Positions 39,101-39,930 of a stretch of DNA of 39,930 nucleotides are shown piece by piece. How positions within the stretch are numbered: position 1 is the stretch's first letter; each line of letters opens with the position of its first letter. Made by a program: the position numbers. Source of the stretch: Vulcanimicrobiota bacterium (GTDB lineage: Bacteria; Vulcanimicrobiota; Vulcanimicrobiia; Vulcanimicrobiales; Vulcanimicrobiaceae); the NCBI GenBank assembly GCA_003135555.1, contig PLCF01000030.1:1-39930 (forward strand), given 5' to 3'.

Positions 39101-39930
39101 GGGATCGTGGCCCATGCTTCGACGGGGCTCAGCATGACAATAATGGGCTCGGGGTTGTCCCGAGCTATGCCGGTCACAAGCTATGTCGGTCGCTTGTCGA
39201 TCGGCTCGGGCTGTGGTAAAGTAAGCCGTTGTGTCCGGCCGCGGACGCGACGCGCGTTCGCGCGCCCACCGCATTCGCCGTGCGGGTGGAAAACGAGGTC
39301 GGACGTCGAGTGAGATGCTCGCGTGCCGGTCGAGGCGACGACACCTGGCCGCGCCGGGCAAGATAAACCACCAGAGAGCAGTTTTCTTTTGGCCGCGAAG
39401 AAGCAAACCAAGACGCGCAAGAAGCGCGAGTTCAAAAACGTCGGATCGGGCGTCGCGCACATTCACTCGTCGTTCAACAACACGATCGTGACGATCACCG
39501 ACAACACCGGTTCGACGATCGCCTGGGCCTCGGCCGGCAACCTCGGCTTCAAGGGCTCGAAGAAGTCGACGCCGTTCGCCGCGCAGATGGCCGCTGAGGC
39601 CGTCGCGCGCAAAGCGATGGATCACGGGATGAAGACCGCCGAGGTCTACGTCAAGGGTCCCGGGGCCGGGCGCGAAGCCGCCATTCGTTCGCTGCAGGCC
39701 GCCGGTCTGGAGATCACGCTCATCAAAGACGTCACGCCGATCCCGCATAACGGCTGCCGCCCGCCGAAGCGCCGTCGAGTGTAAGGGAGTTTAGAGAAAA
39801 AGATGGCCCGTTACACCGCAGCCGTGTGCCGCCTGTGCCGCCGCGAAACCGCGACGTCCAAGACCGGCGAAAAGATCAAGCTCTTCCTCAAGGGCGACCG
39901 CTGTCTGTCCAAAAAGTGCGCCGTCGAGCG

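Follow-up and report, generated by a model that had tools for sequence, protein, structure and literature searches.

A conserved structured RNA in the leader of the rpsK-rpsD-rpoA-rplQ operon of Vulcanimicrobiales

Ribosomal-protein leaders are a classic case in which one regulatory problem has been solved repeatedly by unrelated RNAs. The leader of the alpha operon of Gammaproteobacteria (Alpha_RBS), which we take to be RF00140, is a pseudoknot. A 2020 survey records structurally unrelated S4 leaders for operons of the form rpsM/rpsK/rpsD/rpoA/rplQ or rpsD/rpoA/rplQ in six lineages, namely Gammaproteobacteria, Firmicutes, Clostridia, Fusobacteriales, Bacteroidia and Flavobacteria (Eckert and Weinberg 2020, PMC7247131). 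Applied to an rpsK-rpsD-rpoA-rplQ operon, the rule of that survey points to S4 (PMC7247131).

The window analysed here (the whole stretch of DNA, 39,930 nt) ends within such an operon (Table 1). It comes from Vulcanimicrobiales, an order of soil bacteria, and the phylum to which it belongs, Vulcanimicrobiota (formerly Eremiobacterota or WPS-2), has very few cultured members. In the window rpsD follows rpsK after a spacer of 18 nt, and the order rpsK-rpsD-rpoA-rplQ was intact in 10 of 10 relatives checked, 6 of them without the element described below; the operon downstream of the leader thus encodes S4. The intergenic region 5′ of rpsK is 393 nt long, and positions 39262-39373 of its plus strand are a conserved, covarying non-coding RNA structure in the rpsK 5′ UTR. 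The genome-wide survey's note had described a structured element here ending 18 nt upstream of the rpsK start, and this distance is correct (from 39370 to the TTG at 39389). We rejected a coding reading of the element (from an in-frame GTG at 39323), since the helix lengths vary among genera by non-multiples of three and homology to S11 begins at the TTG.

Two features of the genes themselves were observed in passing. TTG is the rpsK start codon in all 90 in-order loci inspected, and the strict retention of so weak a start suggests tuned translation initiation. In this assembly rpsD is read as two overlapping frames of 132 and 146 aa (contig positions ~39803-40400, mostly past the window end), while its relatives have a single ORF of 218-219 aa; the split is probably a frameshift error of the assembly.

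Table 1. Features of the rpsK leader and its surroundings in the window
Feature	Position	Strand	Basis or remark
RES-domain toxin	38058-38537	-	divergent from rpsK, upstream of its promoter
Xre-like (MbcA/ParS-type) antitoxin	38552-38995	-	divergent from rpsK, just upstream of its promoter
Promoter-like site: TTGTCG (39194-39199), 17-nt spacer, TGgTAAAGT (-10 at 39217-39222)	39194-39222	+	sequence
P0, 5′-terminal transcript hairpin, outside the element proper	39225-39252	+	MFE fold
Small hairpin GCGCG-UUC-GCGCGC	39252-39265	+	sequence comparison; this genus and some related genera only
Conserved RNA element	39262-39373	+	comparison and covariation
P1 hairpin, loop UCGCC at 39275-39279	39266-39289	+	6 of 6 pairs compensatory (MAFFT alignment A1)
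J1/2 linker; consensus 3′ end AGAU runs into P2	39290-39296	+	A34 and G35 nearly invariant in A1
P2, outer stem 39297-39302 with 39326-39331	39297-39331	+	4 of 5 outer pairs compensatory
P2b, variable inner stem-loop of P2	39303-39325	+	length varies; plain loop in several genera (by eye)
Conserved block GAGGCGACGACAC	39332-39344	+	invariant columns in A1
Invariant core AGGCGACGACA, 11 nt	39333-39343	+	unchanged in A1 and in all 16 copies that only the model found
P3 hairpin CCUGGC-CGC-GCCGGG	39344-39358	+	3 of 3 outer pairs compensatory on A1
Conserved 3′ tail CAAGAUAAAC	39359-39368	+	G101, A102, A104, A105 (nearly) invariant in A1
Shine-Dalgarno-like AGAGAG (GGAG in most other genera)	39373-39378	+	sequence
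rpsK (ribosomal protein S11, 131 aa, TTG start)	39389-39784	+	Pfam PF00411, E 1.6e-52
rpsD (S4), start; gene runs past window end	39803-39930	+	ORF
RNA contig, run X4	39246-39471		metatranscriptome
RNA contig, run X3	39252-39435		metatranscriptome
RNA contig, run X1	39320-39546		metatranscriptome
RNA contig, run X7	39329-39565		metatranscriptome

Anatomy and covariation of the element

We located rpsK in 119 of the 121 sampled genomes of the order and fetched upstream regions from 70 of them, representing all 39 genera; the rpsK locations and the rpsM gaps given below include the unpublished genome G100, the tally of weak matches outside the order includes G196, and no claim depends on either. 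Of the 70 fetched loci, 52 have the core [CT][GCT]AGGCGACGACA 5′ of rpsK. Alignment of 52 copies from 36 genera by MAFFT, without structural input (alignment A1), revealed 19 invariant columns, including UCGCC of the P1 loop and AGGCGACGACA, and RNAalifold on A1 returned P1, P2 and P3 with 6, 5 and 3 bp; compensatory changes occur at 13 of these 14 pairs. Of the cells, 91.9% were paired; shuffles gave 79.0%, none of 500 reaching the observed value, and sliding the partners by 1-3 columns gave no more than 51.3%. We counted 116 double-change cells, where 32.7 are expected; these observed counts take in 5 invariant candidate pseudoknot pairs that we added. An earlier doubt, that the pair counts came from an alignment fitted to the model, is thereby met, because the covariation persists on an alignment that was not fitted.

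The genome-wide survey's note had spoken of four covarying helices and an invariant 14-nt block. Three helices (P1, P2 and P3) are conserved, but what was taken for a fourth is, as judged by eye, an extension of P2 that varies and is missing from several genera. Likewise, an 11-nt core of the block is invariant but its flanks vary (GAGG, CAGG or TAGG on one side; ACACC, ACAGC or ACACU on the other). A U-G wobble in the P2 outer stem is kept in 44 of 52 rows, and the tail reads GAUAAAC or GAAAAAC across copies.

Folding of single sequences, by comparison, was uninformative: neither the element nor the whole UTR folded better than shuffles (z +0.42 and -0.08, respectively), so the case for the element rests on comparison. 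All three hairpins appeared in the single-sequence MFE fold of 44 of 137 unique copies, compared with 3 of 137 in shuffles, and the MFE folds paired on average 5.7 of the 11 nt of the block that is predicted to be single-stranded. A mini-hairpin within the block that these folds favour (GUCG-AGG-CGAC) was rejected, as the natural variants GUCC, GCCG, GCCU and AUCG break its pairing, by eye without compensation. When the 137 unique copies were aligned by L-INS-i, RNAalifold recovered P1 and P2 and missed P3, because P3 lengths misalign.

The loops of P1 and P3 are complementary to the block between P2 and P3. GGCGA of the block can form five pairs with the P1 loop UCGCC in 52 of 52 rows, with no variation, and both the P1 loop and the core AGGCGACGACA are unchanged in all 68 in-order copies (the 52 aligned rows and 16 found by the model). 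The P3 loop contains UCGU, complementary to the adjoining ACGA of the block, in 90 of 137 unique copies versus 8.7 ± 2.7 in shuffles; in the genus of the window this loop is CGC or CGU, without UCGU. With the block ordered as GG-CGA-CGA-CAC, a single strand could accommodate both loops next to each other. Both partners of this putative pseudoknot are invariant, so covariation gives no test of the pairing. A fold in which the P1 loop, and probably the P3 loop too, docks on the GG-CGA-CGA-CAC strand is therefore offered tentatively, with somewhat less than an even chance of being right; an invariant strand flanked by two complementary loops is a specific, testable idea of tertiary structure. It is unlikely that the element is no S4 site at all, but either the first leader responding to S11 or to RNA polymerase alpha, or a small-molecule aptamer in which two hairpin loops clamp the invariant GG-CGA-CGA strand; were either so, the synthesis of ribosome and RNA polymerase subunits would be tied to a signal that is not known to act on this operon in any organism.

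Distribution, losses and the spacing of rpsM and rpsK

A covariance model (R1) was built from A1. On the 70 loci it gave 52 matches at 58-88 bits, the next best scoring 14.4 bits. Searching 151 genomes of the phylum revealed strong matches (56-88 bits) in 45 genomes, one per genome, all of them among the 73 genomes of the order (44 of 72 in the family of the window, a count that takes in this genome, and the one sampled genome of the sister family) and none among the 78 genomes of the phylum outside it. All remaining matches scored 25.7 bits or less, and three weak matches outside the order (22 bits) were neither on the rpsK contig nor close to the gene. Of the strong matches, 44 lie directly upstream of rpsK on the same strand and contig, and the 45th is at a contig end. 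Single copy, position at rpsK and restriction to the order, all stated by the genome-wide survey's note, are thus borne out for strong matches in the genomes searched, and the pattern of misses that it gave was reproduced (0 of 25 in a large genus, with 0 of 16 fetched loci; 0 of 4 in a small genus; one of 5 missing in another).

The search was extended with a structure-free pattern (P1 loop, core and tail) over 185,579 species genomes, one per species, which returned at least 119 stretches; among the matches listed, R1 gave 98 a score of 57-94 bits, while the other 21 scored no more than 29 bits or had no score. In the first 80 of the at least 119 matches, an S11 N-terminus follows just after 65 of 66 strong matches, the 66th being at a contig end, and after none of the 14 weak ones. 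Among the matches listed, the titles of most strong records name Vulcanimicrobiota, Vulcanimicrobiales, Vulcanimicrobiaceae, Eremiobacteraeota, WPS-2 or member genera. Eight strong records, all MAGs, carry the titles of other phyla (Rhodospirillales, Limnocylindrales/Limnocylindria, Acidiferrales, Acidoferrum, Verrucomicrobiia and Armatimonadota); in each a full-scoring copy precedes an S11 fragment 77-100% identical to that of the window, and they are likely mislabelled or contaminated bins.

The downstream gene is always rpsK, and the upstream neighbour of the leader varies (the toxin-antitoxin pair here, a ~440-aa protein or rpsM elsewhere). This distribution bears on the reading of the element as a riboswitch or sensor, in which a small molecule or ion would couple the synthesis of S11, S4, RNA polymerase alpha and L17 to a metabolite. 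The compact multi-hairpin fold, the invariant junction and loop nucleotides and the possible pseudoknot do resemble aptamers, and the element adjoins the ribosome-binding site. A riboswitch, however, pairs an aptamer with an expression platform and recurs at metabolically related genes, and what was found is a single copy per genome, always at this ribosomal-protein operon and at rpsK only, with no expression platform or plus-strand terminator visible in the window and no match to a riboswitch family of Rfam; we consider a sensor of this kind very unlikely.

Direct inspection of 90 in-order genomes found the element in 68, from 37 of the 39 genera, and not in 22. It is missing from all of genus g3 (16 of 16 fetched; R1 0 of 25) and g24 (4 of 4), from one species of g18 (1 of 5) and from one of g19 (1 of 2), with the operon unaltered in each. 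Within g18 and g19, species with and without it share the promoter, the 5′ hairpin P0 followed by GCGGCA, the Shine-Dalgarno sequence and the TTG start, and the element-less leaders differ by absence of the stretch from P1 to the tail, the rest being kept; g3 and g24 present the same picture. The element is thus a self-contained module, inserted between the 5′ hairpin and the ribosome-binding site, that was excised cleanly more than once. Counted without a tree, the independent losses would number at least two to four, to judge from the two within-genus cases and the two genera in which no member has the element. Excisions that keep promoter, 5′ hairpin and Shine-Dalgarno sequence imply that the element is dispensable. 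Two other accounts of these leaders were rejected: loss of rpsD does not explain loss of the element, as all 6 element-lacking genomes that we examined have the whole operon, and the hairpin of element-less leaders is not a remnant of P1, as the same hairpin (P0) lies 5′ of P1 in element-bearing congeners. The most valuable by-product of this comparison is that the within-genus pairs are natural knock-outs, which would allow a clean test of what the leader contributes.

Repeated loss with no visible compensation would also be expected of a 5′ UTR module that acts independently of protein, as a determinant of mRNA stability or processing or as a translational enhancer or standby site, tuning output without feedback. 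5′-terminal hairpins can stabilise bacterial mRNAs, and P0 is a separate conserved hairpin of this kind. P0 already supplies such a hairpin, though, and the 11 consecutive invariant nucleotides and invariant loop motifs beside covarying stems, kept over 37 genera, suggest specific recognition and not generic structure, which makes a protein-independent role for the element unlikely.

Outside the order, rpsM stands immediately before rpsK in 20 of 20 loci examined (12 families). Inside the order it is always upstream and on the same strand wherever both genes share a contig, at a gap of 249 nt in g11, 339 nt in g4, 515 and 759 nt in g8, about 640 nt in the sister family (four genomes), 2-44 kb and typically 3.6-6 kb in most other lineages, and 25 kb in this genome. 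In the four short-gap lineages rpsM is still the immediate neighbour of rpsK, and all four carry the element; the long-gap lineages g3 and g24 are without it. A split between rpsM and rpsK is therefore neither needed for the element nor a guarantee of it. The description of rpsK as cut loose from rpsM accordingly fits the kilobase-scale gaps of most lineages but not the four element-bearing lineages with gaps of 249-759 nt, and what the element accompanies is a widened rpsM-rpsK spacer with its own promoter, not physical separation as such. As history, an orphaned operon gaining its own control is plausible.

As to what fills the spacer, the 3.6-6 kb inserted between rpsM and rpsK in many genera include, as the nearest upstream neighbour and on the same strand, a gene for a ~440-aa protein whose C-terminus reads NGGYVGLGIKF or close to it. 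In this genome the toxin-antitoxin pair is part of the ~25 kb inserted between rpsM (13823-14140) and rpsK.

Transcription, the ribosome-binding site and a candidate mechanism

The promoter-like site with a TTG and TAAAGT at a spacing of 17 nt, noted before, is present upstream of the element; it matches the consensus at 8 of 12 positions, and a strict consensus promoter scan called none. All 10 loci of this genus share TTGNNN-N17-TGGTAAAGT, and the corresponding site is TTGACC-N17/18-TAnnnT in most genera outside g1. In 68 of 70 loci the sigma-70-type site with the best score immediately precedes the conserved P0 start; in the other 2 the script chose another site. Directly after the promoter, most element-bearing leaders, and element-lacking ones as well, have an equivalent of P0 (UUGGCGCC...GGCGC, often then GCGGCA); genus g7 has none. 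The P0 loop is often rich in CUCUCU and often complementary to the Shine-Dalgarno sequence GGAG(A), and P0 may have a stabilising or regulatory role of its own.

Four metatranscriptome runs contain contigs, derived from relatives 85-95% alike, that reach from the element into rpsK (examples in Table 1); those of runs X3 and X4 come from two studies. The public RNA runs contain a small share of the window's words, and assembled contigs give no start, strand or level. They show that leader and rpsK are joined in RNA libraries, where DNA carry-over is possible. None of the four runs has a contig upstream of 39246, at most a weak hint that the 5′ end of the transcript is near the start predicted 5-9 nt after TAAAGT (about 39227-39231), as contig ends may be assembly breaks.

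That these contigs continue from the element into rpsK speaks against an independent small RNA gene merely lying upstream of rpsK. Its counterpart, a transcription attenuator, would find support in one genus, g19, where the locus L040 has a GC hairpin followed by UUUU between element and Shine-Dalgarno sequence. No terminator-like site was found on the plus strand of the window, however, the tail after P3 is A-rich and not U-rich, and hairpins are inserted in just 8 of 64 leaders, with a U tract in one. Either reading, attenuator or small RNA gene, is most improbable.

Measured in 64 leaders, the gap from the tail to the Shine-Dalgarno sequence is 2-14 nt (median 7) in 55 and 23-40 nt in 9, of which 8 are filled by self-contained hairpins of -12 to -19 kcal/mol. 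Such a hairpin lengthens the chain and leaves the distance in space unchanged, so closeness of the element to the ribosome-binding site seems to matter, as it should if a bound factor controls the initiation of translation. The insert of L040, CCCGCGC-CGCA-GCGCGGG then UUUU, is terminator-like and unique among the 8; it might add attenuation in that species.

The reading that we favour, with about even confidence, is that the element is a cis-acting leader bound by a ribosomal protein of its own operon, most likely S4, and represses translation. Transcription of rpsK-rpsD-rpoA-rplQ would start at the operon's own promoter, ~35 nt upstream of the element, and the leader folds into three hairpins, of which the P1 loop and probably the P3 loop would dock on the invariant strand between P2 and P3, giving a compact pseudoknot. 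Once in excess over free 16S rRNA, the ribosomal protein would bind this fold; as the leader ends 2-14 nt before the Shine-Dalgarno sequence, the bound protein would keep the 30S subunit away from the rpsK start or trap it there, and less S11 and less of the downstream gene products would be made.

S4 is the likeliest ligand, a choice made purely by precedent. A leader of the same type could instead answer to another product of the operon, S11 or L17, and the element does abut rpsK and not rpsD. S11 joins 30S assembly late and needs other proteins, and is hence a poor binder of free RNA, which counts against it; L17 is encoded by rplQ, ~2.1 kb downstream. A candidate L17 leader exists elsewhere, and the passages of the 2020 survey consulted here include no S11-responsive leader (PMC7247131). 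Taken together, S11 or L17 appears an improbable ligand beside S4.

Comparison with known leaders

The locus has one mark of a ribosomal-protein autoregulatory leader, a conserved structure on the coding strand in the 5′ UTR of a ribosomal-protein operon, and the element is a new RNA family, most likely of this well-known functional kind. At E ≤ 10, positions 38900-39930 matched two unrelated lncRNA models of Rfam (E 3 and 4.3), both of them off the element, and no Rfam 15 family reached its gathering score anywhere in the window, in agreement with the initial statement that no Rfam family matches; these scans take in Alpha_RBS and the published ribosomal-protein leaders so far as release 15 contains them. 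Among the papers listed by full-text searches, which do not extend to subscription journals, none describes such an element for the phylum in its title or the start of its abstract. The family is well defined, by more than 130 distinct copies, sharp boundaries and strong covariation, and could be entered in Rfam.

Leaders of this class often, though not always, resemble the rRNA site of their protein. Mimicry of rRNA was examined by local alignment to the 16S rRNA of a complete genome of the same genus, and no score beat the shuffles; 75 of 200 shuffles scored as well for the block, 192 of 200 for the tail, 168 of 200 for the P1 loop and 189 of 200 for the whole element. For the block, the top-scoring 16S segment falls in h17, near the S4 site; the matching letters are a helix strand there, in the rRNA fold as read, and in the leader they are the P2 3′ strand and the predicted single strand.

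Alpha_RBS, which binds S4 and lies at the rpsM start, governs the same genes rpsK, rpsD, rpoA and rplQ and is likewise placed at a ribosome-binding site; it is a pseudoknot, as the rpsK leader may be. It differs in standing before rpsM instead of rpsK and in its unrelated fold, and its model gave no match at E ≤ 10. For Alpha_RBS the binding of S4 has been shown, according to the survey (PMC7247131), whereas for the rpsK leader S4 is a candidate ligand.

The S4 leader candidates of Clostridia and Fusobacteriales are lineage-specific and structured, and precedent was the basis on which S4 was proposed as their ligand, just as for the rpsK leader (Eckert and Weinberg 2020, PMC7247131). They precede rpsM in the operon rpsM-rpsK-rpsD-rpoA-rplQ, whereas our element precedes rpsK, and they carry a conserved GUAA or GAAA motif that is discussed in the survey as rRNA mimicry (PMC7247131). 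The tail of the rpsK element reads GAUAAAC or GAAAAAC, and no significant similarity to rRNA was found for the element. The S4 leaders of Bacteroidia and Flavobacteria and the rpsD leader of Firmicutes are, in the same account, also internal to or detached from the alpha cluster, before rpsD-rpoA-rplQ (PMC7247131), but they are single hairpins directly before rpsD, whereas the rpsK element has three hairpins and no similarity to them in sequence or model. Such cases show that the S11-S4-alpha-L17 gene set repeatedly gains new, unrelated leaders. Lineage-specific leaders are what specialists expect, and to them the rpsK leader will be useful and clean, not surprising; if our reading is true, it is another structural solution for this gene set, reached in Vulcanimicrobiales by a leader that precedes rpsK.
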